Assembly (NCBI GenBank): GCA_016204465.1
Contig: JACQKQ010000034.1
Coordinates: 1-44,665 of the forward strand
DNA from: Candidatus Levyibacteriota bacterium
GTDB lineage: Bacteria; Patescibacteriota; Microgenomatia; Levybacterales; UBA12049
Reading direction: 5' to 3'
Length of the DNA: 44,665 nt
The position numbers and the translations under genes were made by a program. Numbering within the stretch: the first letter of the stretch is position 1; each line of letters starts with the position of its first letter. Under the pieces are notes generated by a model. The model saw only the letters and a list, made by a program, of their open reading frames with translations. It ran no database searches and had not been told where the DNA came from. Positions 1-15,950 of this stretch are shown here, piece after piece.

Positions 1-932
1 CCGTTATAAGAGATATTCATGTTTTATTGATTAAAAAACTGGTTAGTGTAACAGGAAAGGCTAGAGCTACAATATATTTTTCCAAAGTTCAAAACCCGCT
101 TCTTCGCGAGTTTAACCTTGAAAGATATTTCGCCGATGATCCAGACAATAGAATTGGTGCCAGAAAATCATTTGATTTTGAGATATTTAAAAACTTGCAT
201 GATTTATTGACGCCGGAAGAAATAAACACCTTAGAGAAAGTGGCACTAAGTTTTAGAGAACAGACGATGAAACTAAGTCCTGACCTTTTGAAAAGGGAAT
301 TAGAAAGGTTTGTCATTGAATTGTCTTGGAAATCATCCAAAATTGAGGGCAATACTTACACGCTTTTAGAAACAGAGTCTTTAATTAAGGAACAAAAAGA
401 AGCAGCTGGTAAGAGTAAAGATGAGGCAATGATGATTCTTAATCACAAAGCAGCTTTTGAAGAAATACTAAAAGCAAAAAATGATTTTAAAACTATTTCT
501 GTTTCAGGAATTAATCAGCTGCACAATATTTTAACTAAAGGGTTGGGGATTTCCTCTGGTATCAGAAAACAAGCAGTGGGAATTACCGGAACAACTTATC
601 ATCCTCTTGATAATGAACATCAGACAAAAGAGGTTTTTGAAAAAATGATTAATGCTGTAAATAGGAGTAAAAGCCCTTTTGAAAAAGCGCTGATTGTTCA
701 TTTTATGATTCCTTATATTCAACCATATACTGATGGTAACAAAAGAACTGCCAGAATGCTGACTAATGCGATTTTATTAGCCTACGATTTATATCCACTT
801 TCATACCGCAGCGTTGACGAAGATGAATTTAAAAAAGCTTTAATTTTGTTTTACGAGCAGGAAAGTATTTATGAAATCAAAAAGTTGTTTATAGAACAGA
901 TTAAATTTGCCAACGAGACTTATTTTAGATAA
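1..932 (+). CDS. Fic family protein with N-terminal winged-HTH remnant (5' end lies outside the window)
   Basis: Fic-like motif QPYTDGNKRTARM and SWKSSKIEGNT. The frame stays open back to base 3 (VIRDIHVLLIKKLVSVTGKARATIY, wHTH-like), so the TTG at 27 is probably not the true start. Confidence 0.85.
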   Translation, partial: VIRDIHVLLIKKLVSVTGKARATIYFSKVQNPLLREFNLERYFADDPDNRIGARKSFDFEIFKNLHDLLTPEEINTLEKVALSFREQTMKLSPDLLKRELERFVIELSWKSSKIEGNTYTLLETESLIKEQKEAAGKSKDEAMMILNHKAAFEEILKAKNDFKTISVSGINQLHNILTKGLGISSGIRKQAVGITGTTYHPLDNEHQTKEVFEKMINAVNRSKSPFEKALIVHFMIPYIQPYTDGNKRTARMLTNAILLAYDLYPLSYRSVDEDEFKKALILFYEQESIYEIKKLFIEQIKFANETYFR

Positions 933-941
933 TTTATCTGT

Positions 942-990
942 GGTTATATTAGAGTTACGATTATCGAGCTGAATTTGTCTTAATCTGACC
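942..990. repeat. att-like site A (49 bp, imperfect terminal inverted repeats)
   Basis: ggttatattagagttacgattatcgagctgaatttgtcttaatctgacc matches 3761-3809 at 35/49 positions without gaps. Its ends (ggttatattag and the reverse complement ggtcagattaa) are inverted. Confidence 0.7.
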
Positions 991-1015
991 AGTGAATTAA
1001 CAAATATTATCGATT

Positions 1016-1885
1016 ATGACTAAACCGGAAGTAATAGCTAAGCTTCAAGAATTGGCAAAAAAATTAGGAACAGATACCTTAAAGCAGGAAGATATTAGAA
1101 AAGCTGGATTTATTTACCAAGTAATGTTGCATTTTGGTGGGAAAATTAAACCAGCGCTCTTAGCAGCAGGACTTAAACCGAGTCGTCTTGGAGAGGCAAT
1201 GTCCACAACTGAGGAGGAATTACTTCAACATATCCGATACCTTCAAAAAAAACTTAGAAGACCTCCAGTAATAATAGATTTAAGACGAGAAGGTAAGTTC
1301 TCAGATAAAATTTATGAAACTAGATTTGGGAGTTTCCCTGAGGCACGAGCTATTGCTTTAGGAGGGACTCCACCTACTCAATCAAAAAGAACTCAAAAAC
1401 CAGGAGATTCAGATAATATAGGTGATCATTTCAATTATATTGGGAAGGCAGGAGAAATGTATATAATTTCAGAGTTACTTTACCAAGATTATAATGCAAA
1501 TCTAGCCTTGGTTGATACCGGAGTAGATGTAATAGCAACAAAAAATGATAAAACATTCTATTTCCAAGTCAAAAATGTTTCATTCAAGAATACAAATATC
1601 AGAACAGTCCCTATTACCAAAAGCTCATTTATTAATAACCAAAGAGGTAATATGTACTATATGTTCGTCCTTCAGATGGAAAATGAAAAGAAAGTTCTAA
1701 TTGTACCGTATCAAAACATTCATCAATATATTCAAAAGGAAATTATCCAGTTCGATGAACAAAAAAGACAATTTAACATAACTATTTCTATTGCAGATAA
1801 CACATTTAAAATTCACTCTGCTTCAAATACCCAGCGAGACGAAGATGTGAAGCACATGGTTGAAGACTGGAAAGTTATTGCTTAA
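1016..1885 (+). CDS. Homing-endonuclease-associated repeat domain fused to a PD-(D/E)XK nuclease
   Basis: Two N-terminal repeats (e.g. EELLQHIRYLQKKLRRPP...YETRFGSFPEARAIA). C-terminal GKAGE...DTGVDVIA...YFQVK nuclease motif. Confidence 0.65.
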   Translation: MTKPEVIAKLQELAKKLGTDTLKQEDIRKAGFIYQVMLHFGGKIKPALLAAGLKPSRLGEAMSTTEEELLQHIRYLQKKLRRPPVIIDLRREGKFSDKIYETRFGSFPEARAIALGGTPPTQSKRTQKPGDSDNIGDHFNYIGKAGEMYIISELLYQDYNANLALVDTGVDVIATKNDKTFYFQVKNVSFKNTNIRTVPITKSSFINNQRGNMYYMFVLQMENEKKVLIVPYQNIHQYIQKEIIQFDEQKRQFNITISIADNTFKIHSASNTQRDEDVKHMVEDWKVIA

Positions 1886-1888
1886 CTT

Positions 1889-1902
1889 TCTTAATCTGAC
1901 CA
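1889..1902. repeat. Half-site B, a 14-bp direct repeat of the right arm of site A
   Basis: tcttaatctgacca is identical at 978-991 and 1889-1902, bracketing the nuclease gene. Confidence 0.65.
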
Positions 1903-1934
1903 AGTTATTCTCCGCCCAGAAGGAGGTGAACAGA

Positions 1935-2846
1935 ATGAAAAATATAAAGATTCAAAGACATCTGTTAGTTCTCATCATATTGATCGGATTAATGTTTTGT
2001 TCTTCAAAAGGTGTTAAGGCAGCAGAATGTAGCACTTTGACGACTTGCGGAAGTACTTGCTCGTATGGAGGAGTTACTTATAATACTGTCATAATCGACA
2101 GCCAATGTTGGTTTAGAGAGAATCTCAATGTTGGGGCAATGATTACAAATTTAGAAATTCCTGATAATACAGCTCCAACTCTCAATGATCCAAACACTGT
2201 TTCAAAATGGTGCTATAATGATAATCCGATTTACTGTAATCAAGAAGGAGGATTATATACTTGGGCTGAAACCAACGCTTTGTCTAATTCTTGTAACTTA
2301 AATTCCTGCAGTGTCCCAACTCCCAATCAGGGTATTTGTCCCATCGGTTGGCACATTCCAACTGATGCCGAATTTTATACGCTGGAAAATTATTTAACAT
2401 CACCAGGGTAGACGTGTGATGCGACAAGAGATGGTTGGGGTTGCTCTGGTGCCGGAATCAAACTCAGACTGGGTGGAATCTCCGGTTTCGATGCGATAAG
2501 CGCCGGTAATCATGAAACGAATGGAAATCTCAGCTTTTTCGACAAGCGTGAGCCATCCATACACTTTTGGTCATCTTCCCCTTGCCTTGTTTGCGCTAAT
2601 TGGGGTCACGCGTATGGTCGCAGCTTGATAGGTTGGGGTGATAACCCCTTTGTTGCCCGTGGTTGGAGTCATATGGCGCATGGTATGTCTGTTCGGTGTT
2701 TATCTGACACTGCCGTCATTGGTCCTCCGACAAATAAGAACCAGTGTAAAAATAATGGCTGGCAGATATTTAATAATCCAACTTTTAAGAATCAGGGAGA
2801 TTGTGTCAGTTACGTCCAAAGTAGTCCGAATGCGATAGGCAACTAG
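1935..2846 (+). pseudogene. Secreted FISUMP (Fibrobacter succinogenes major paralogous) domain protein interrupted by one in-frame TAG at 2409-2411
   Basis: RBS aggaggtg at 1921, ATG at 1935, then a signal peptide. Motifs QCWFRENLNVG, GGLYTWAE and GICPIGWHIPTDAEF precede the TAG. The same frame continues TCDATRDGWGCSGAGIKL...FWSSS...GMSVRCL to the stop at 2846. Confidence 0.8.
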
Positions 2847-2927
2847 ACTAAATAGTAAGTTGGTTTATAGGCAACAACCCATCTTTTACGGCGGGCTGTT
2901 TGTTTAATTTTGTTTAATGATGAAGAT

Positions 2928-3065
2928 TTAAATCGTAGCGGCATGAGTGAGTATCCTGATCTGATTTAATCTTTCTCTCGCTTGCTCAGACGACACTGGA
3001 TTCTGAAAAGCCTTTATAATTGAATTCAAACCATCAGATCGATTAAAACTAGGATTACGGAGCAC
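2928..3065 (-). other. 45-codon minus-strand tail reading out of att-like site C
   Basis: Translates VLRNPSFNRSDGLNSIIKAFQNPVSSEQARERLNQIRILTHAATI*, which aligns without gaps to the tail at 3656-3790. Confidence 0.55.
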
Positions 3066-3115
3066 TTCGACTAGTCACGACAGTGAGTGAAATCGGATTG
3101 CTCAGTGTTATAACC
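3036..3115. repeat. att-like site C, interrupted by a ~40 bp REP-like hairpin insert
   Basis: tcgattaaaactaggattacggag (3039-3062) matches 4483-4506 at 23/24. Both copies then reach agtgttataa (3104-3113 and 4510-4519). Confidence 0.7.
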
Positions 3116-3159
3116 AGCTGGCACTTAATATACCTAAAATTTGATATAGTTAACTAAGT

Positions 3160-3648
3160 ATGAATACTGATTTAACACCCGAAGAAAAAAAGTTGGTTGA
3201 GTATTCAAAGGATGCTGTTGTTAAATACAATAAAATCCGTCATGCAAATGGAGGTATAGACACTCTGTATTCGTTTTTATTGTCAGATAGCGGGAAGATT
3301 CATGATGGAGCAAGTTATGAGCCGAATATTGCTCATGCTTCAGTTTGTGGGGAAAGATGCGCAATTGCGAATATGGTATTGCAGGAATCATATAAAGCCA
3401 AGATTAAAAGCATTGTTGTGGCGGATCCAGTTCCCGAAGTTCAAGAAAATAGAACTCCACCATGCGGAACTTGTCGTCATCTTATTTGGACTCATGGGAC
3501 ACCTGAAACAACTGTTATCTTAATGCAATATGTTCAAGGAAAAGATGGTTGGACTTTCTCAAAAATAGAGAAATATACGGCTAAAGATTTTTATCCGCTT
3601 CCGTACGAACCTAAAGAAGGACTTTGGGATAATTTCCAACGTAAGTAG
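3160..3648 (+). CDS. Cytidine deaminase family protein
   Basis: Zn-binding motifs VCGERCAI and PPCGTCR. Confidence 0.8.
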   Translation: MNTDLTPEEKKLVEYSKDAVVKYNKIRHANGGIDTLYSFLLSDSGKIHDGASYEPNIAHASVCGERCAIANMVLQESYKAKIKSIVVADPVPEVQENRTPPCGTCRHLIWTHGTPETTVILMQYVQGKDGWTFSKIEKYTAKDFYPLPYEPKEGLWDNFQRK

Positions 3649-3655
3649 TAGATTT

Positions 3656-3790
3656 TTAGATAGCAAGAGCTAGGGATGGTTTTACTCTTTCGATACCTTC
3701 TCTTATTTGAGCAACCAGCCTGCAATCTTCGAATGTCTTGATTAAACAAGCTAATTGACTGGTTATATTAACATTACGATCCTCGAGCCA
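3656..3790 (-). other. 44-codon startless minus-strand tail reading out of att-like site D
   Basis: Translates WLEDRNVNITSQLACLIKTFEDCRLVAQIREGIERVKPSLALAI*. There is an in-frame TAA just upstream and no start codon. Confidence 0.55.
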
Positions 3791-3809
3791 AATAGTTCTT
3801 ACTCGAACT
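3761..3809. repeat. att-like site D (49 bp)
   Basis: ggttatattaacattacgatcctcgagccaaatagttcttactcgaact matches site A at 35/49. The reverse complement of its right arm (agttcgagtaa) matches the left arm of site E (agttcgattaa) at 10/11. Confidence 0.7.
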
Positions 3810-3837
3810 TAACGTCATTTTAGATGCATTTTATGTA

Positions 3838-3866
3838 TTGACAAAGTATGTACAAGTTTATATAAT
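3838..3866 (+). promoter_or_regulatory. Consensus sigma70 promoter for the toxin-antitoxin operon (leaderless)
   Basis: TTGACA (3838-3843), 17 nt spacer, TATAAT (3861-3866). The GTG start follows 6 nt later. Confidence 0.8.
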
Positions 3867-3872
3867 ATATTT

Positions 3873-4172
3873 GTGCAATATAAAGGTTACAGAATTGAGT
3901 TTTCTGAAGAGAAGAATTTATTACTAAAGGAAACAAGAGAACTATGTTTTGAAGATGCTTTAAAAGCAATTGAAGAAAAGAAAATTTTGGATGACCTTAA
4001 GTCTAGTAGCAAAAAGTATCCTCATCAAAGAATATTAGTAATAAAAAGAGAAGAATATACTTATGCTGTGCCCTATGTGATAGACAAAAAAAGGAAAGTA
4101 ATTTTTCTTAAAACAGTCTACCCAAGTAGGGTTTTGACTGATAAATATCTGAAAGGAGGTGGGAAAATTTGA
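3873..4172 (+). CDS. BrnT-like type II toxin
   Basis: IEFSEEKNLLLKETRELCFED ... YPHQRILV ... YAVPYV ... FLKTVYPSR. Overlaps the downstream antitoxin by 4 nt. Confidence 0.75.
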   Translation: MQYKGYRIEFSEEKNLLLKETRELCFEDALKAIEEKKILDDLKSSSKKYPHQRILVIKREEYTYAVPYVIDKKRKVIFLKTVYPSRVLTDKYLKGGGKI

Positions 4173-4453
4173 AAGTAATACTTGATAAATATGAGAAAGA
4201 TTTAGAAGCTGCCCTAGAAAAGGGTGAATTTGTTAATGCGCCTAATTTAGAAGATACTAAACAAATGTTTCAGGAAGCAGCTAGAAACTTTAGGCAGTTA
4301 CAAGAAACAAAGAGTATTACCTTAAGGGTTAATAGAGAGGATCTTATTAAAGTTAAATCTAAAGCCAAGAGAAATGGTATAGCTTACCAAACCTTGATAA
4401 GCTTGTTAATTCGTCAATATATAAAAGGGGAGAAAGAAGTAATTTTAGATTGA
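4169..4453 (+). CDS. BrnA/CopG-like (ribbon-helix-helix) antitoxin
   Basis: C-terminal KSITLRVNREDLIKVKSKAKRNGIAYQTLISLLIRQY. RBS ggaggt upstream. Confidence 0.75.
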   Translation: MKVILDKYEKDLEAALEKGEFVNAPNLEDTKQMFQEAARNFRQLQETKSITLRVNREDLIKVKSKAKRNGIAYQTLISLLIRQYIKGEKEVILD

Positions 4454-4479
4454 GAAGATAAGTTCAAATTGATACTTTA

Positions 4480-4519
4480 AGTTCGATTAAAACTAGGAAT
4501 ACGGAGTCAAGTGTTATAA
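4480..4519. repeat. att-like site E (right boundary of the cargo array)
   Basis: agttcgattaaaactaggaatacggagtcaagtgttataa is near-identical to site C. Confidence 0.7.
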
Positions 4520-4524
4520 TGAGT

Positions 4525-4686
4525 AAGCGGCTATCCGAGGGTTTTTAACCCTCGGCTGCAAAGCTCTTGCAACAGGTCTGTAAAGAGTAGTAGACTTCAA
4601 TCGTGAAAGGATTGAAGTCTACGGCACAAACAAAGTACGATTTGAGATATCACTTTGTCTTTGTACCAAGGTATCGCAAGCGAGTA
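4525..4686 (+). mobile_element. tnpA: Truncated IS200/IS605 element: left-end hairpin plus the first ~28 codons of the Y1 transposase TnpA
   Basis: Perfect hairpin ccgagggtt-ttt-aaccctcgg at 4535-4555. KSTAQTKYDLRYHFVFVPRYRKRV is the typical TnpA N-terminus, and similarity is lost after it. Confidence 0.75.
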
Positions 4687-5006
4687 CCGAGGAGAAAAAT
4701 TTTAACAATTGTTGTGAACCTTGTTAATTTGAAAAATGCAAGGCTATCAGAGAGTAAATACAGTATTGCAATAGTCGAAGAAAAGATAAAGTAGTACGGC
4801 TCGTGCAAGTAGCCCCAGCCGAAGATATTGCTGATGAAAAAAATATAAATAAACGCAATGGCAATTGGCGTATCGAGCATCTAATCCATTATATCATCTG
4901 CTATTTACCGGCTTTGTTCCAGAGCAACCACTTCTTTTACCATAGGCAACATAGTAGCACAGTATGTTTTTTCTGCCAAGAGAGAAACCTCTGCTATACT
5001 AGTGGT

Positions 5007-5792
5007 ATGGAGGAATATCTTGATTTTGCCGTTTCCCTTGCGCTAAAGGCTGGGGAAATGATAAGAACTGATTTTCGAAAAGCCATTGTCCGCGAGTGGA
5101 AAGCCGACGAAACGCCGATTACAACGACTGATCGTAAGATAAACCAAATGGTAATTGAGCAGGTGGCAAAGCGTTATCCGACATACGCCATTTTGGCAGA
5201 GGAGGGCAGCAGGCCAAAGGAGAGCGAGTATGCCTGGGTGTGCGACCCAATTGATGGTACGGTGCCATTTTCCAACAAGTACCCAACGTCTGTATTTGCC
5301 CTTGCGCTTACCAAGAATGGAGAAAGCATGCTCGGTGTTATCTACGATCCATATATGGATCGGTTGCTCACAGCAGTAAAAGGCCAAGGCGCGTACTGCA
5401 ATAAAGAGCGCATTCATGTTTCAGAGTCAGATGAATTCAACAAAACGACAATTGATGTTGAAGCAGCTAGGGAGCCATTTTTACACGATATAAGTAAGCT
5501 ATATGAGCTGTTGCTGAAGAAAAATAGCGTTGCTATATCACTTCGTTCCGTTTCGTATGGGGGAATGCTTGTTGGCATAGGACAAATAGCTGCAGTTGTT
5601 GGAGCGCCACATTCGCCATGGGATGGCGCAGCGTCAAAGGTTATTGTTGAAGAAGCTTTAGGAAAAGTAACAGATTTATTCGGAAACAATCAGCGATATG
5701 ATCGAGAACTAAAAGGTATTATTATAAGTAATAGCTGTATACACGATGCTATAATCAAACTTGTTAGACCCCTTCTTGAAAAAAAGGTGTGA
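5007..5792 (+). CDS. Inositol monophosphatase family protein
   Basis: ILAEE, WVCDPIDGT and PWDGAA motifs. Start reassigned to the ATG at 5007, just after an extended -10 TGcTATACT. Confidence 0.9.
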   Translation: MEEYLDFAVSLALKAGEMIRTDFRKAIVREWKADETPITTTDRKINQMVIEQVAKRYPTYAILAEEGSRPKESEYAWVCDPIDGTVPFSNKYPTSVFALALTKNGESMLGVIYDPYMDRLLTAVKGQGAYCNKERIHVSESDEFNKTTIDVEAAREPFLHDISKLYELLLKKNSVAISLRSVSYGGMLVGIGQIAAVVGAPHSPWDGAASKVIVEEALGKVTDLFGNNQRYDRELKGIIISNSCIHDAIIKLVRPLLEKKV

Positions 5793-5805
5793 TATAATAC
5801 AAGCC

Positions 5806-6072
5806 ATGGCGACTAAAAAGAAAAAAACCATTGAACAGACGTTTTATGTTTCGGGCGAAAAGCTCATCGATAAAGTGAAAGAACTTGTCAGAGAGGGAAA
5901 CGTTCGCCGAATTATTATTAAAGACAAAAATGGTAAGGTGCTTGTTGAATTCCCTCTTACTTTTGGTGTTGTCGGTGCAGTGTTAGCTCCAGTTTTAGCC
6001 GCCGTTGGCGCGATTGCCGCGCTTGTTACCGAGTGCTCCATTACCGTGCAGCGCGAAGAGGAAAATATATAG
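5806..6072 (+). CDS. DUF4342 family protein
   Basis: LIDKVKELVREGNVRRIIIK...EFPLTFGVVGA signature. ATG at 5806. Confidence 0.8.
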   Translation: MATKKKKTIEQTFYVSGEKLIDKVKELVREGNVRRIIIKDKNGKVLVEFPLTFGVVGAVLAPVLAAVGAIAALVTECSITVQREEENI

Positions 6073-7862: not shown

Positions 7863-8363
7863 ATGAATCGTATTTCAAGGTTTATTGTTTTTCTTCTTCC
7901 AAAAGCGTACACACATTGCGATATTCCCTGCGGCATCTACGATCCGCATGCTTCGCAGCTTGCAGCGCACACGGTTATTCGGATGGTAAGCCTTATTAGT
8001 GAACTCACACCAAGCAGTTCTGAACCTCCGTTTGAGGAAAGAAAAAGGATTATCCACCAAATCGCCCGCTACACAAAGGTAAAAGAAGAACATGCCGAAG
8101 CTTTAAAGCATGAAATTCGCGTTCTGTGGGGAGATTATTTTAAGGAAGAACACTTAAAGGAGTATCCGGATCTTCATAATTTAGTTTTTAAAACCATGAA
8201 ACTTGCTTCCAAAGCGCGCCAGGAAGTAAATCACGATGCGGCGCAAGAACTACTCGTTACCGTACAAAAGATTGCTGAAATCTTTTTTAAAACAAAGGGA
8301 CTTACGCCTGTTCGTGTCAAATCTCCCTACCCAACAGGAGGAGAGATTGTTCTCCATAAATAA
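7863..8363 (+). CDS. sodN: Nickel superoxide dismutase precursor
   Basis: Nickel-hook HCDIPCGIYDP after a 17-aa leader. VKEEHAE and LWGDYFK are conserved. Confidence 0.95.
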   Translation: MNRISRFIVFLLPKAYTHCDIPCGIYDPHASQLAAHTVIRMVSLISELTPSSSEPPFEERKRIIHQIARYTKVKEEHAEALKHEIRVLWGDYFKEEHLKEYPDLHNLVFKTMKLASKARQEVNHDAAQELLVTVQKIAEIFFKTKGLTPVRVKSPYPTGGEIVLHK

Positions 8364-14223: not shown

Positions 14224-14550
14224 ATGAAAAAACGTGAGATTATTTTTATCCTCTCGTCAACATTTGTTGTAGTTGTTGCATGGATTGCATTTAGCATTTA
14301 CCACAACAGAATCACATCAACGATTCCCGATGCCCTAAGTATCAAGATAGCGCCAATTGAAAAAAGCTTTGATCTTGAAACAATCGAAAATCTTAAAACA
14401 AGGGAGCGCATCTCACCAATTTCTGAATCTGATTTTCTCTTGCTACAACAGACAACTCCTCCGCCAACTGGCGGACCAACGCCACAAGCGACGCAGTCAG
14501 CATTGCTATCTCCAACTCCAGCAACGCAAGGAGGAACGCTTGGACGATGA
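14224..14550 (+). CDS. Hypothetical membrane-anchored protein with Pro/Thr tail
   Basis: ATG at 14224, N-terminal TM helix, overlaps the next gene. Confidence 0.65.
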   Translation: MKKREIIFILSSTFVVVVAWIAFSIYHNRITSTIPDALSIKIAPIEKSFDLETIENLKTRERISPISESDFLLLQQTTPPPTGGPTPQATQSALLSPTPATQGGTLGR

Positions 14551-15950
14551 AACGAAGTTTATGGGAACTAAGGATTCCGACATTGCTTGTTTTAGTATTT
14601 CTTGTCATCGGAACATTTGCGACGTCTTATCTTGTACAAATAGGCATAAATCTTACCGGCAAAGCATCTATTCCTGAAAATCCAGAAAATGTCCGGCTGG
14701 CTAATATAGAAGATACATCGTTTACTGTTTCTTACACAACACAAGCAAGTGTCCTAAGCAGTGTTGCTTATGGTGAAGATGCATCTCTTGGCAACACAGC
14801 GGTAGATGAGCGTGATGGCACTAAGGTAAGCCAGCGTAAGACACACAGTATTATCGTGAAAAACCTCGAGCCTGAAACGACTTATTTTTTTTCTATACTT
14901 TCAGGTGGAAAAACTTTTCTTAATGGAAATAAACTCTTTGAAGTGACAACAGGAAAAACTTTGCAATCAAAACCACCAAAGCGCGTCGTAAAAGGAAAAG
15001 TGCTTGTTCAAAATGGCCAATCATCAGAGGAAGTTATTGTGTACCTGACCGCCGACAATACCCAAATGCTCTCGTCTGTTCTAAACGAAGAAAATGAATA
15101 CACATTTAACATAAGTAAACTACGAACCGAAACGCTTGCATCTCTTGCCGGACTTTCAGACAACACACCACTTAACATTCTTGCAATCTCAGAAAGTATG
15201 CAATCAACAGCAACGATTCTGGCAAAAAACGCAGAAACTATTCCGCCAATCACACTTTCTCAAAATTACGATTTTACAGCAAGTCCACTTTCCATTGCAC
15301 CAAAAGCTTCTTTCTCTGCAACGCCGCTTGCAGGCAATATCGGGTTTCCAAGTTTATTGGCAAGTCAATCTGCATCAATAAAACCCGAAATTCTTACCCC
15401 AGATGAAGGCGAACAATTTTCCGATCAACGCCCTATTTTTAGAGGCAAAACAGCACCAGGCGAGAAAGTTGAAATCACCATTGAATCGGAGCCAATAACA
15501 GCAGAAGTAACTGCAGATAAAAGCGGTAACTGGTCGTACCGTCCACCCTCGGCGCTTGCACCGGGAGAGCACTTAATAACAATTACGACAAGAGACAAAT
15601 TTAGTATAGCGCAGAAAATTACTAAATCCTTTACCGTCTTTGCCGCCGGTACGCAAGTGAGTCAAACGGCAACACCATCGGGAGAGCTGACAATAACACC
15701 GTCTCCTACAGTACCAATATCGGCAACACAGGCGCAATTACCAATTACACCAACAGCGGTTCCCTCGCTATCACCTAGCCCAACACCAACAGCGCAACCA
15801 ACTCTTATTCCAACAGCAGTTACGACATCGCTTCCAACGCTTCCGCCAGCAGGGGATACGTCAGTAAACATTGTTGGACTGGGCGCATTGACAATTGCTG
15901 GCATTGGGATTATTCTATTGCTTCTTAGCCGCATACCTAGCCCGCTATGA
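14547..15950 (+). CDS. Surface protein with FN3-like and bacterial Ig-like domains, Pro/Thr linker and C-terminal TM helix
   Basis: PENVRLANIEDTSFTVSY...NLEPETTYFF (FN3-like). RPIFRGKT...ADKSGNWSY...LAPGEH (Ig-like). Confidence 0.75.
   Translation: MKRSLWELRIPTLLVLVFLVIGTFATSYLVQIGINLTGKASIPENPENVRLANIEDTSFTVSYTTQASVLSSVAYGEDASLGNTAVDERDGTKVSQRKTHSIIVKNLEPETTYFFSILSGGKTFLNGNKLFEVTTGKTLQSKPPKRVVKGKVLVQNGQSSEEVIVYLTADNTQMLSSVLNEENEYTFNISKLRTETLASLAGLSDNTPLNILAISESMQSTATILAKNAETIPPITLSQNYDFTASPLSIAPKASFSATPLAGNIGFPSLLASQSASIKPEILTPDEGEQFSDQRPIFRGKTAPGEKVEITIESEPITAEVTADKSGNWSYRPPSALAPGEHLITITTRDKFSIAQKITKSFTVFAAGTQVSQTATPSGELTITPSPTVPISATQAQLPITPTAVPSLSPSPTPTAQPTLIPTAVTTSLPTLPPAGDTSVNIVGLGALTIAGIGIILLLLSRIPSPL

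Follow-up and report, generated by a model that had tools for sequence, protein, structure and literature searches.

[quoted passage not shown] In the same part of that review, the SSV1-, pTN3- and pT26-2-type integrases have the recombination site within the recombinase gene, which is parted by integration, and gene and site form a compact module whose parts are exchangeable between elements (PMC8371274). The system described here resembles them in both respects. Unlike in the SSV type, the enzyme concerned is a bacterial large serine recombinase (LSR, with serine domains) and not an archaeal tyrosine recombinase with Phage_integr_3, and the last ~43 residues alone are exchanged while the catalytic and DNA-binding domains stay together. 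In the mycobacteriophages BPs and Brujita, according to the available portion of the report on their immunity, attP also lies inside a coding sequence and the viral and prophage forms of the protein differ at the C-terminus; integration costs the repressor a C-terminal degradation tag, and a tag is present on the integrase as well (PMC3694055). A subset of the tails described below appears to end like the host tmRNA tag. However, in BPs and Brujita it is the repressor that is cut and the integrase is of the tyrosine type, whereas here the recombinase itself is cut.

The tycheposons of Prochlorococcus likewise target tRNA genes, where their insertion leaves partial copies of the tRNA and displaces older elements further into the island, and integrase-less remnants are common among them; 910 of 937 elements carry a tyrosine recombinase and the rest LSRs (accessible part of bioRxiv 10.1101/2020.12.28.424599). 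In contrast to the present locus, that part of the preprint reports no coding recombinase tail at the partial tRNA copies, and it deals with a cyanobacterial host and mostly tyrosine enzymes. Integron arrays are alike in that short cargo units with their own sites are stacked at one fixed position in the chromosome, with the most recent ones closest to the anchor, and in that many arrays have no recombinase. They differ in that the recombinase here is a serine enzyme instead of IntI, the array is anchored at a tRNA 3' end instead of attI, the sites are double-strand att sites that include a coding tail in place of a folded attC, and a promoter of its own is present in at least one cargo unit.

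The window (the whole stretch of DNA analysed, 44,665 nucleotides) is contig C14 of a MAG (G000) that is 88.8 % complete; C33, C11, C35 and C39 are other contigs of the same genome. The host is a tiny groundwater bacterium, and the island lies beside a tRNA gene. Positions 1-4510 hold five arrayed units but no recombinase, and five sites (A-E) stand between the cargo genes.

Two homologous peptide tails had been predicted on the minus strand at sites C and D, and translation reproduced the coordinates and strands of both. The tail C unit (2928..3065) consists of a C-type core (3038-3065, with GAGCAC at 3060-3065) and an intact tail of 45 codons, read from 3065 to 2928 as VLRNPSFNRSDGLNSIIKAFQNPVSSEQARERLNQIRILTHAATI and then a stop. 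The tail D unit (3656..3790) consists of a D-type core (3760-3790, with GAGCCA at 3785-3790) and an intact tail of 44 codons, read from 3790 to 3656 as (I)WLEDRNVNITSQLACLIKTFEDCRLVAQIREGIERVKPSLALAI and then a stop. The first codon of tail C is GTG; tail D lacks a start codon, as predicted, with no ATG, GTG or TTG between the upstream stop and the first conserved residue. The two tails align without gaps in the predicted register with 10 identities in 44 positions and a BLOSUM62 score of 26, which was reached in 0 of 20,000 shuffles, and the score of residues 11 to the end was reached in 1 of 20,000. BLASTP gave no alignment of tail C with tail D at E<=100 because the pair is too short, and the shuffle test and a profile comparison were used instead. 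When profiles of 6 C-type and 39 D-type tails were compared using hhalign, they matched in the same register (probability 93.6 %, E 2.2e-7, 39 gap-free columns). Tails C and D are thus homologous. They were also said to differ strongly in DNA, which holds, as 59 of 132 bases (45 %) are alike. Neither tail matched a family in Pfam, and Rfam found nothing at E<=1 in positions 1-6000 of the window. Against the tail HMM, the profile of which includes both sequences, tail C scored 57.2 bits and tail D 80.2 bits; tail C is 63 % identical to the copy in G038 (E 1.7e-12) and tail D 79 % identical to the C-terminus of LSR P0001. In an AF2 model the pLDDT of the tail was just 45-67.

The tail family was found in ~80 further stretches of candidate phyla radiation (CPR) genomes. 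An exact pattern search of genome contigs found the D core in 73 stretches and the C core in 11, and the conservation of codons 1-9 is inflated by this manner of collection. Core-bearing records with informative names were mostly Microgenomates-type CPR (Patescibacteria), and a few were labelled Omnitrophota, Zixibacteria, Spirochaetia or Woesearchaeota. Using the tail HMM, 111 merged tails were assigned to 78 loci. Truncations or frameshifts affect 48 of the 111 tails, so that decaying relics make up many of the copies. In every multi-tail locus (29/29) the tails share one strand, and the next gene is mostly convergent on the tail, as in the window (printed locus maps, read by eye and uncounted). 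Most copies are orphans, just 4 of the 111 tails in the fetched loci having an ORF of at least 150 aa before them, and the best 150 of 196 profile matches are 32-234 aa long. The exact D-core pattern occurred in 0 stretches of the IMG/VR viral contigs, so that this search, a weak one with a single exact pattern, gave no sign of known phages.

The DNA difference between tails C and D had been taken as a sign of selection at the protein level. For the family this was borne out, with a median dN/dS of 0.245 in the tail frame vs 1.10 and 1.60 in the other frames (codons 11-36 of 51 distinct D-type tails; the pairs are non-independent and the value is that of the family, not of the C/D pair), but it does not extend to the first ~9 codons, which are conserved as DNA and not as protein because they are the recombination site. 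Codon-position entropy in the D-type tails was 1.34 at third positions vs 0.86 at first and 0.62 at second positions. Coding-type selection acts on the tails.

According to the original prediction, each tail is an alternative C-terminus that recombination fuses to an upstream gene, possibly the recombinase itself. A search of other genomes for serine recombinases with such C-termini was positive, and both LSRs fused to the tails and tail-less relatives were found there. The tail is in frame on at least 10 full LSRs. D-type tails end the LSRs L026, L068, L091 and P0001, which have Resolvase, Recombinase and Zn_ribbon domains; in L026 (526 aa) these are Resolvase PF00239 (E 1.3e-16), Recombinase PF07508 (E 5.9e-14) and Zn_ribbon_recom PF13408 (E 2.9e-6). 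C-type tails end the LSRs P0178, P0180, P0185 and P0189 and the partial forms P0177 and P0183. LSR Pfam domains were found in 21 of 22 matches to residues 440-526 of L026 and in 6 of 21 matches of the search that yielded the C-type-tailed LSRs. The 22 matches to L026 end in the tail (8), in W followed by L.R.DSN.. (7), in W followed by LPD, LPG or LRR (5) or otherwise (2); close relatives of the tailed recombinases end in tRNA antisense instead, so that the C-terminus does change with the recombination state. Among 10 tail-bearing LSRs, the median identity is 25 % in the body vs 75 % in the tail and the tail is more similar than the body in 44 of 45 pairs, the tail identity being inflated because these LSRs were found via their tails. 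The cargo of two LSR-bearing units (L068 and L065) comprises an HNH endonuclease, a lectin-like hydrolase domain and DUFs; a scan of 10 ORFs showed neither phage nor conjugation genes. No LSR gene is present in the window, as there is no Resolvase match on C14 and none beside the tails. The MAG has one LSR, on contig C11; with 22 % identity it is only distantly related, and it has no tail of this family.

The core is a conserved TGGCTC inside the LSR gene (TGG and CTC, coding for W and L), the complement of the tRNA-Asn 3' end GAGCCA, and it lies 43 codons before the stop in L026, L068, L091 and P0001. The sequence GAGCCA, which reads TGGCTC on the strand of the tail, occurs in the att sites as well as at the tRNA-Asn 3' end, and homology between units that stand in different contexts ends there; GAGCCA/TGGCTC is therefore the probable crossover core common to sites and target, judging from the sequences compared. 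In LSRs integrated at tRNA-Asn, the tail is gone and the reading continues antisense into the tRNA (W followed by LPRxDSN...). The LSR of L097 is of this kind, reading ...IW and then LPRQDSNLEPAG to a stop, with tails 21 kb upstream on the same strand, and L065 is arranged like it. A tRNA-Asn(GTT) is present in 14 of the 78 loci, and in 14/14 it lies downstream of the tails on the opposite strand. That the sites are tRNA-Asn 3'-end copies and the array a tRNA-linked island was absent from the original prediction.

Along the array, cargo 1 is a Fic-domain gene (3..932, plus strand; Pfam Fic, E 3.4e-15), the 5' end of which is cut by the contig end and the DNA of which is 92.8 % identical to L078 and L052. 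Site A (941..971, minus strand) is a D-type core without a tail, with a P' arm and a degenerate tRNA 3'-end copy (GAGCTG at 966-971). It was predicted to open like the tails and then run antisense into fic, and it does, reading LDNRNSNITTDKL... (LDNRNSNIT). Its bases 941-969 are 96.6 % identical to the core of L078; there the fic stop is separated from the core by 280 nt more than at site A, and this extra DNA holds an intact tail. The left arm of the next unit (AATTTGTCTTAATCTGACC..., 972..997) has the same motif as found directly after the tRNA-Asn 3' end in G038; the AATTTGTCTTAATCTGACC motif recurs at site B, and related arms stand 21-22 nt ahead of the core in other loci. Cargo 2 (1016..1885, plus strand) is an HNH_repeat protein (Pfam E 1.5e-13) whose relatives adjoin tails in L045, L035, L078 and L083. 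Site B (1886..1908) was identified from sequence reading and a motif scan as an arm-like remnant, TTTCTTAATCTGACC, and no recognisable core or tail was found there by motif scan. Cargo 3 (1935..2846, plus strand) is a Fib_succ_major gene (Pfam) with an in-frame TAG at 2409-2411.

Beyond tail C, a spacer and the left arm of the deaminase unit (3066..3140, TGGCACTTAATATACC from 3119) follow, and this arm matches the arm after tRNA-Asn on C33. Cargo 4 is a cytidine/deoxycytidylate deaminase-like gene (3160..3648, plus strand; Pfam dCMP_cyt_deam_1, E 1.3e-5). Beyond tail D lie the left arm and putative promoter of a toxin-antitoxin-like unit (3791..3872, plus strand), with TTGACA at 3838-3843, a 17 nt spacer and TATAAT at 3861-3866; in L016 the flank homologous to this interval follows a real tRNA-Asn (...GGGGGAGCCA). 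Cargo 5 (3873..4453, plus strand) is the two-gene toxin-antitoxin-like unit itself. Its second gene is a CopG/BrnA-type antitoxin (Pfam), and its first gene has no Pfam match over the cut-off. Its amino-acid identity is 80-82 % to L016/L059 and 69-79 % to L019, all beside such sites. The island ends distally with site E (4477..4510, minus strand; GAGTCA at 4504-4509), a C-type core with a 9-codon stub (LRIPSFNRT and a stop) that is also found in L014 and L016. Just beyond it is a weak N-terminal fragment of an IS200-type transposase (4603..4690, plus strand; Pfam Y1_Tnp, E 0.0043, below the cut-off).

The array most likely starts at the genome's own tRNA-Asn on C33. There, an arm and a fic gene come after the tRNA-Asn (14977-15051), and positions 15293-15979 of C33 are 91.7 % identical over 688 nt to positions 4-690 of C14, so that the candidate link is a 92 %-identical overlap and not a joining read. 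Positions 3829-4510 of the window are 82.5 % identical to L016, where the unit stands directly after a real tRNA-Asn (...GAGCCA followed by GATAGTTCTT); the window has this flank after the core of tail D instead (...GAGCCA followed by AATAGTTCTT). The homology to L016 stops at 4510, right after GGAGCCA, and L078 and L052 likewise have the fic unit, placed after a partial tRNA end. The boundaries of the cargo units thus fall at the core, and two units recur elsewhere with homology ending exactly there.

Contigs of four runs in Logan break at cores; runs X5-X20, with small shares, form no part of this result. The contigs depart at 971 and at 3790 and have loose ends at 4480 and 4514, and a back-joint from 4510 to 3119 was found in contigs of runs X2 and X4, in which circles are not distinguishable from arrays of other strains. 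The joints 881 to 4383, 3035 to 4479, 3138 to 3701 and 3854 to 4090 were rejected as too weak, with ~21 letters on one side. We also dropped the idea that the arms are chromosomal 'B arms', because they travel with the cargo and similar motifs occur inside LSR codons. Weak matches on C11 to tmRNA positions 347-363 (4084-4100 and 8272-8288) were discarded as att repeats, as they are T-arms of ordinary tRNA genes.

We consider it highly probable that the tails are the detached last ~43 codons of LSRs together with the recombination site, that integration at tRNA-Asn separates the tail, and that serial insertion builds the array. In an LSR family of Microgenomates-type CPR, the attachment site of the element would lie inside the 3' end of the recombinase gene, with crossover in the 6-bp core TGGCTC, between the codons for W and L, and the 3' end of tRNA-Asn(GTT) as chromosomal target. 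Integration would part the tail from the recombinase, and the reading frame of the integrated LSR would then extend by several codons into the tRNA, antisense to it. The tail would stay at the far end of the inserted DNA, behind a degenerate tRNA 3'-end copy, and each later insertion at the tRNA would push older units outward, the unit of the array being left arm, promoter, cargo genes, convergent tail and core. Units without an LSR would be moved by a recombinase supplied in trans. The recombinase's own end is, with good confidence, swapped each time DNA is moved, and this exchange may regulate the enzyme, as the 'switch' of the original prediction, which was largely right, had it.

If the sites and tails in the window were instead idle now, as inert scars of LSR-element integrations whose recombinases were later deleted, the coding-like signature would have been kept because the tails were recently part of working genes. 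This is plausible but somewhat short of probable. It agrees with the 48 truncated or frameshifted tails, with the state of site A (no tail), site B (no core) and site E (down to 9 codons), with a frame-breaking indel in the G038 copy and with the lack of a cognate LSR in the 88.8 %-complete MAG. However, tails C and D show no damage and have the usual length, and the 29-nt core of site A is kept at 96.6 % identity although the adjacent 280 nt are lost. Idle scars also fit poorly with left arms that move with the cargo, with the same units at different array positions elsewhere and breaks exactly at the core, and with the core breaks in contigs of four runs and the back-joint in two of them.

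The units are compact, mostly with one or two genes, they share an orientation, and each has a 60-170-bp site behind it; together with the integron-typical cargo (toxin-antitoxin-like pair, Fic), this recalls a classical array of attC sites served by an IntI tyrosine recombinase, in which the open frames would be a by-product of attC structure. We regard this as hardly credible, given that serine recombinase ORFs of other genomes run straight into the tails, the sites are tRNA-Asn 3'-end copies in arrays that abut tRNA-Asn, and the codon-position pattern shows coding selection; moreover, the only two tyrosine recombinases of the MAG (PF00589; 311 and 286 aa) are on C35 and C39 and not beside the array. 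It is also very unlikely that the tails are small free-standing genes, e.g. for a regulator or directionality factor, that are translated alone. The GTG of tail C and the short proteins that gene callers predict on many copies (the 32-234 aa among the best 150 of 196 matches) would suit such genes, but a start codon is missing from tail D and from the G038 copy, what precedes the conserved L is variable in both length and sequence, conservation begins exactly at the recombination core, and the full LSRs carry the tail in frame.

Returning to the tails as detached LSR ends, several of them, tail D included, appear to end like the genome's own tmRNA degradation tag, which is a lead. The G000 tmRNA was missed by ARAGORN at default settings and found by Rfam; with ARAGORN at -ps90, a relaxed threshold, its tag ends RPALALAA, and tail D ends KPSLALAI. 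A score of at least 15 against the tag end was reached by 9 of 63 intact tails vs 1 of 484 and 0 of 731 background ORFs, while most tails have no match in register. A broader reading, which we offer tentatively and consider rather doubtful, is that a CPR serine recombinase captures genes at a tRNA gene by integron logic. Each cargo unit would bring a spare C-terminus, and the pooled tails would be exchanged among recombinases that are ~25 % identical. The two-helix tail, ending in a mimic of the tmRNA tag, would serve as a state sensor, such that the excised or tail-restored enzyme is tagged and integration-active, and the enzyme at a naive tRNA-Asn is untagged and behaves differently.

No LSR with an attP that overlaps its own 3' end was found described in the titles and abstracts of the openly searchable literature, subscription journals and supplements excluded. 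A target site in the recombinase's own gene has been held, in the accessible part of the review, to be a trait of the archaeal tyrosine family (PMC8371274); here a milder form, in which a short tail is swapped, would occur in bacterial LSRs. Around a hundred conserved small 'ORFs' in CPR genomes would thereby be explained, and tRNA-Asn would be a hot spot of gene gain in genomes of less than 1 Mb. The control of LSR direction is an active question that is relevant to genome engineering. Natural pairs of LSRs with and without the C-terminal module are on offer here, and because direction matters for genome engineering, it would be of practical value if an LSR controlled itself by exchanging its tail or removing a tag.

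The feature in the window is very probably an integrative system that is based on a large serine recombinase (LSR), targets tRNA-Asn and carries a detachable, exchangeable recombinase tail. When the sequence was translated, the two minus-strand frames predicted to open from att-like sites were confirmed, namely tail C (3065-2928; 45 codons with a GTG start) and tail D (3790-3656; 44 codons and, as had been stated, no start codon). The two tails differ strongly at the DNA level (45 % identity), also as predicted, and BLASTP gave no alignment of the two peptides. The gap-free register put forward in the original prediction has a BLOSUM62 score of 26, which none of 20,000 shuffled controls reached. 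When profiles of 6 C-type and 39 D-type tails (named after tails C and D) were compared using hhalign, they matched without gaps in this same register (probability 93.6 %, E-value 2.2 × 10−7). The observation of two homologous tails is confirmed.

A six-frame search of 60 related genomes gave one clear match to tail C (G038; 63 % identity, E-value 1.7 × 10−12), and the G038 locus also contains a D-type copy. The first codons of each tail type were then used as DNA patterns for the core (the crossover stretch opening each tail) in one-genome-per-species contigs, which gave 73 stretches with the D core and 11 with the C core. Informatively named records were mostly of Microgenomates-type candidate phyla radiation (CPR) bacteria (Davies-, Woese-, Gottesman-, Roizman-, Levy-, Curtiss-, Shapiro- and Collierbacteria), with a few under other labels. 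Peptides of about 43 residues recurred on translation downstream of the cores, with the consensus LE[ND]RN.NIT.QL..I.K.F.DFRLVAQIREEIEKVKP.... for the D-type and LRNPSINLT..L..IIKAFQNPIWAEQARERLKQI..L.... for the C-type. Among 51 distinct D tails (codons 11-36), the median dN/dS was 0.245 in the tail frame versus 1.10 and 1.60 in the two alternative frames and third codon positions were the most variable, so the proposed protein-level selection holds across the D-type family. The first nine tail codons are conserved at all three positions, and these codons also served as the search pattern. The majority of copies are orphans, as an ORF of at least 150 aa precedes just 4 of the 111 tails in the fetched loci. 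The tail profile matched 196 of 1.84 billion representatives; the 150 matches listed are 32-234 aa long. Four D-type sites (L031, L032, L041 and L075) have an insert of about 40 nt directly after ...CTCTAATAT, in tail codons nine/ten, which reads in frame in L075 (LENRNSNI[RTCFAISKACCFA]ITTQL...) and may represent a small mobile repeat or else mark a second breakpoint.

The tails were proposed to be alternative C-termini, possibly of the recombinase itself, and this was borne out by both tail and profile searches, in which the matches included C-termini of serine recombinases. At locus L026, a 526-aa protein with Resolvase, Recombinase and Zn_ribbon_recom domains, i.e. an LSR, ends in the tail, and the tail is likewise at the protein end in L068 and L091. 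A word search among longer proteins returned a 550-aa LSR (P0001) with 79 % identity to tail D across the tail. With the C-terminal 87 residues of the L026 protein as the query, 22 proteins were returned, 21 of them with LSR domains; their C-terminal ends were the tail (8), W/L.R.DSN... (7; the slash marks the crossover), a stop after W/LPD, W/LPG or W/LRR (5) and others (2). The C-type profile had 21 matches among longer proteins, including six with LSR domains, four of which are full-length LSRs with a C-type tail end. These results support the view that recombination joins the tails to recombinases as their C-termini. In three predicted proteins, the C-type tail is combined with unrelated enzyme parts (SDR oxidoreductase in P0176, DNA methylase fragment in P0122 and disulfide oxidoreductase in P0187). 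P0176 and P0122 also have an LSR C-terminal fragment ahead of the tail, and in P0187 the tail is N-terminal and no LSR part was seen in the protein. These are probably rearrangement products at the sites or gene-calling artefacts.

The tails were also compared with the recombinase bodies. Among 10 tail-bearing LSRs, body identity was 21-40 % (median 25 %) and tail identity (residues 10-37) was 32-96 % (median 75 %), with the tail more similar in 44 of 45 pairs, a contrast that is inflated because the 10 LSRs were found via their tails. Near-identical tails are present on very different enzymes (e.g., P0160 and P0162), which fits an exchange of tails among recombinases at the core, as judged from sequence comparison.

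In G064, a 569-aa LSR reads into an opposite-strand tRNA-Asn(GTT) (...ARPIW/LPRQDSNLEPAG, then stop), and two tails are located 21 kb upstream on the LSR strand. The LSR of L065 likewise overlaps tRNA-Asn, with an orphan tail 4.7 kb upstream. A tRNA-Asn(GTT) was found inside 14 of 78 tail-bearing 8-kb loci, in all 14 downstream of the tails on the opposite strand, and tRNA-Gln(CTG) has that position in two further loci (L024 and L027). The junction is invariably TGG/CTC (W/L), the complement of the tRNA-Asn 3' end GAGCCA; therefore, the site of the element and the 3' end of its recombinase gene overlap. In our reading, the core would be a degenerate tRNA-Asn copy comprising the T-arm and acceptor end, and 'DSN' would be the T-loop read antisense. 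Integration at tRNA-Asn would exchange the 43-residue tail for 3-13 residues of tRNA antisense and leave the tail at the opposite end of the insert. A different LSR (L095, G062:C1:104276-105832; 518 aa) ends antisense inside tRNA-Ser(TGA); together with the tRNA-Gln(CTG) of L024 and L027, this suggests that related recombinases use other tRNA 3' ends. The tRNA-Asn(GTT) adjoining the G038 array (L005:2536-2815; G038:C3, minus strand) was missed by ARAGORN because it has a group I intron in the anticodon loop (RF00028, 63 bits, E-value 6.4 × 10−15). Outside the window, the sole LSR of the MAG (contig C11, 12836-14404, plus strand) extends antisense by about 22 codons into the tmRNA 3' end (gene at 14340-14746, minus strand; Rfam 97 bits). 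A 32-nt repeat of this junction (C11:10233-10264) continues in frame to a different 30-residue ending, and C11:10233-14746 appears to be a further case of the detachable-tail design, with a different target.

The window itself holds an array of such units without a recombinase. Its left 4.5 kb consists of plus-strand cargo genes in a row with short conserved sites between them. From the tRNA outward, these are a Fic-domain gene (3-932) with site A, where just the 29-nt core is kept; an HNH_repeat protein (1016-1885) with site B, where just the arm is kept; a Fib_succ_major gene (1935-2846) with tail C; a deaminase-like gene (3160-3648) with tail D; and a two-gene toxin-antitoxin-like unit (3873-4453; the second gene is a CopG/BrnA-type antitoxin) with site E, a 9-codon stub (LRIPSFNRT, then stop) that is also present in L014 and L016. 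The Fib_succ_major frame is interrupted by an in-frame TAG (2409-2411); each half has a match to one and the same Pfam family, which is weak for the second half (E-value 0.084), and the TAG may reflect a pseudogene, a sequencing variant or read-through. Just past the distal island end, a short frame (4603-4690) is similar to the N-terminal part of IS200-type Y1 transposases (E-value 0.0043, under the Pfam cut-off). The tRNA-Asn(GTT) of this genome is on another contig (C33:14977-15051), 930 nt from the contig end, and beyond it come GAGCCA, an arm (AGTGGCACTTAATATAAT), a stretch resembling a promoter and a fic gene. As window 4-690 is 91.7 % identical to C33:15293-15979, we infer that this locus extends into the window or that the window represents a strain variant of it. 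The motif GAGTGAAATCG, common to window 3085-3100 and C33:15113-15133, separates the arm from the promoter in two units and may be part of a small repeat.

The units are modular. The toxin-antitoxin-like unit (3829-4510) is 82.5 % identical to L016, where it immediately follows a real tRNA-Asn (...GGGGGAGCCA/GATAGTTCTT...); in the window, the L016-like flank follows the tail D core (...CCTCGAGCCA/AATAGTTCTT...). At its far end, homology to L016, L019 and L014 ends just past GGAGCCA. For the fic unit, identity to L078 and L052 is 92.8 %. In these loci, the unit is preceded by a partial tRNA end, and 280 nt, including an intact tail, separate the fic stop from the core; in the window, the core is kept at 96.6 % identity and the tail is lost. 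Logan contigs of four groundwater runs from one study, one possibly the source sample, break at the cores, and contig-summed depth is highest in the site-holding bins. Loose contig ends were found at 971, 3790, 4480 and 4514, a joint 935->2998 in all four runs, and a back-joint 4510->3119, where one letter is added, in two runs (X2 and X4). These patterns fit either alternative arrays or circles, which are indistinguishable in mixed-community contigs. Units lacking an LSR may be autonomously mobile.

An att site in the recombinase's own gene, as in these LSRs, has been described for archaeal integrases, which are tyrosine enzymes, and is said in a review to be archaea-only (PMC8371274). Elements such as tycheposons are likewise inserted serially at tRNA genes and leave partial tRNA copies and remnants, as far as described in bioRxiv 10.1101/2020.12.28.424599. 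Mostly at the level of titles and abstracts, we found neither an LSR whose own 3' end contains attP nor any example from CPR bacteria.

An AlphaFold2 model of the L026 protein (30 aligned sequences) has a body with block-mean pLDDT mostly of 80-95, a core-encoded peptide (residues 486-491) with confidence below 50, and a tail of two helices (489-503 and 505-525; pLDDT 45-67), which we place after the final strands and helix of the zinc-ribbon region. The last five residues are small or hydrophobic in 73 % of intact tails versus 45 % in other ORFs of the loci. The tmRNA tag of this genome ends in ...NFRPALALAA (ARAGORN, relaxed threshold) and tail D in ...KPSLALAI. Against the last eight tag residues, 9 of 63 intact tails score at least 15; among ORFs, this applies to 1 of 484 from the loci and to none of 731 from the genome. 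Most tails have no match in this register. In mycobacteriophages with integration-dependent immunity, attP is described within the repressor gene, whereas in the LSR family it is within the recombinase gene; integration there strips a degradation tag from the C-terminus, and the integrase also carries a tag (PMC3694055). By analogy, the tail may destabilise the full-length recombinase or alter its direction of action, and tail exchange would then act as a functional switch.
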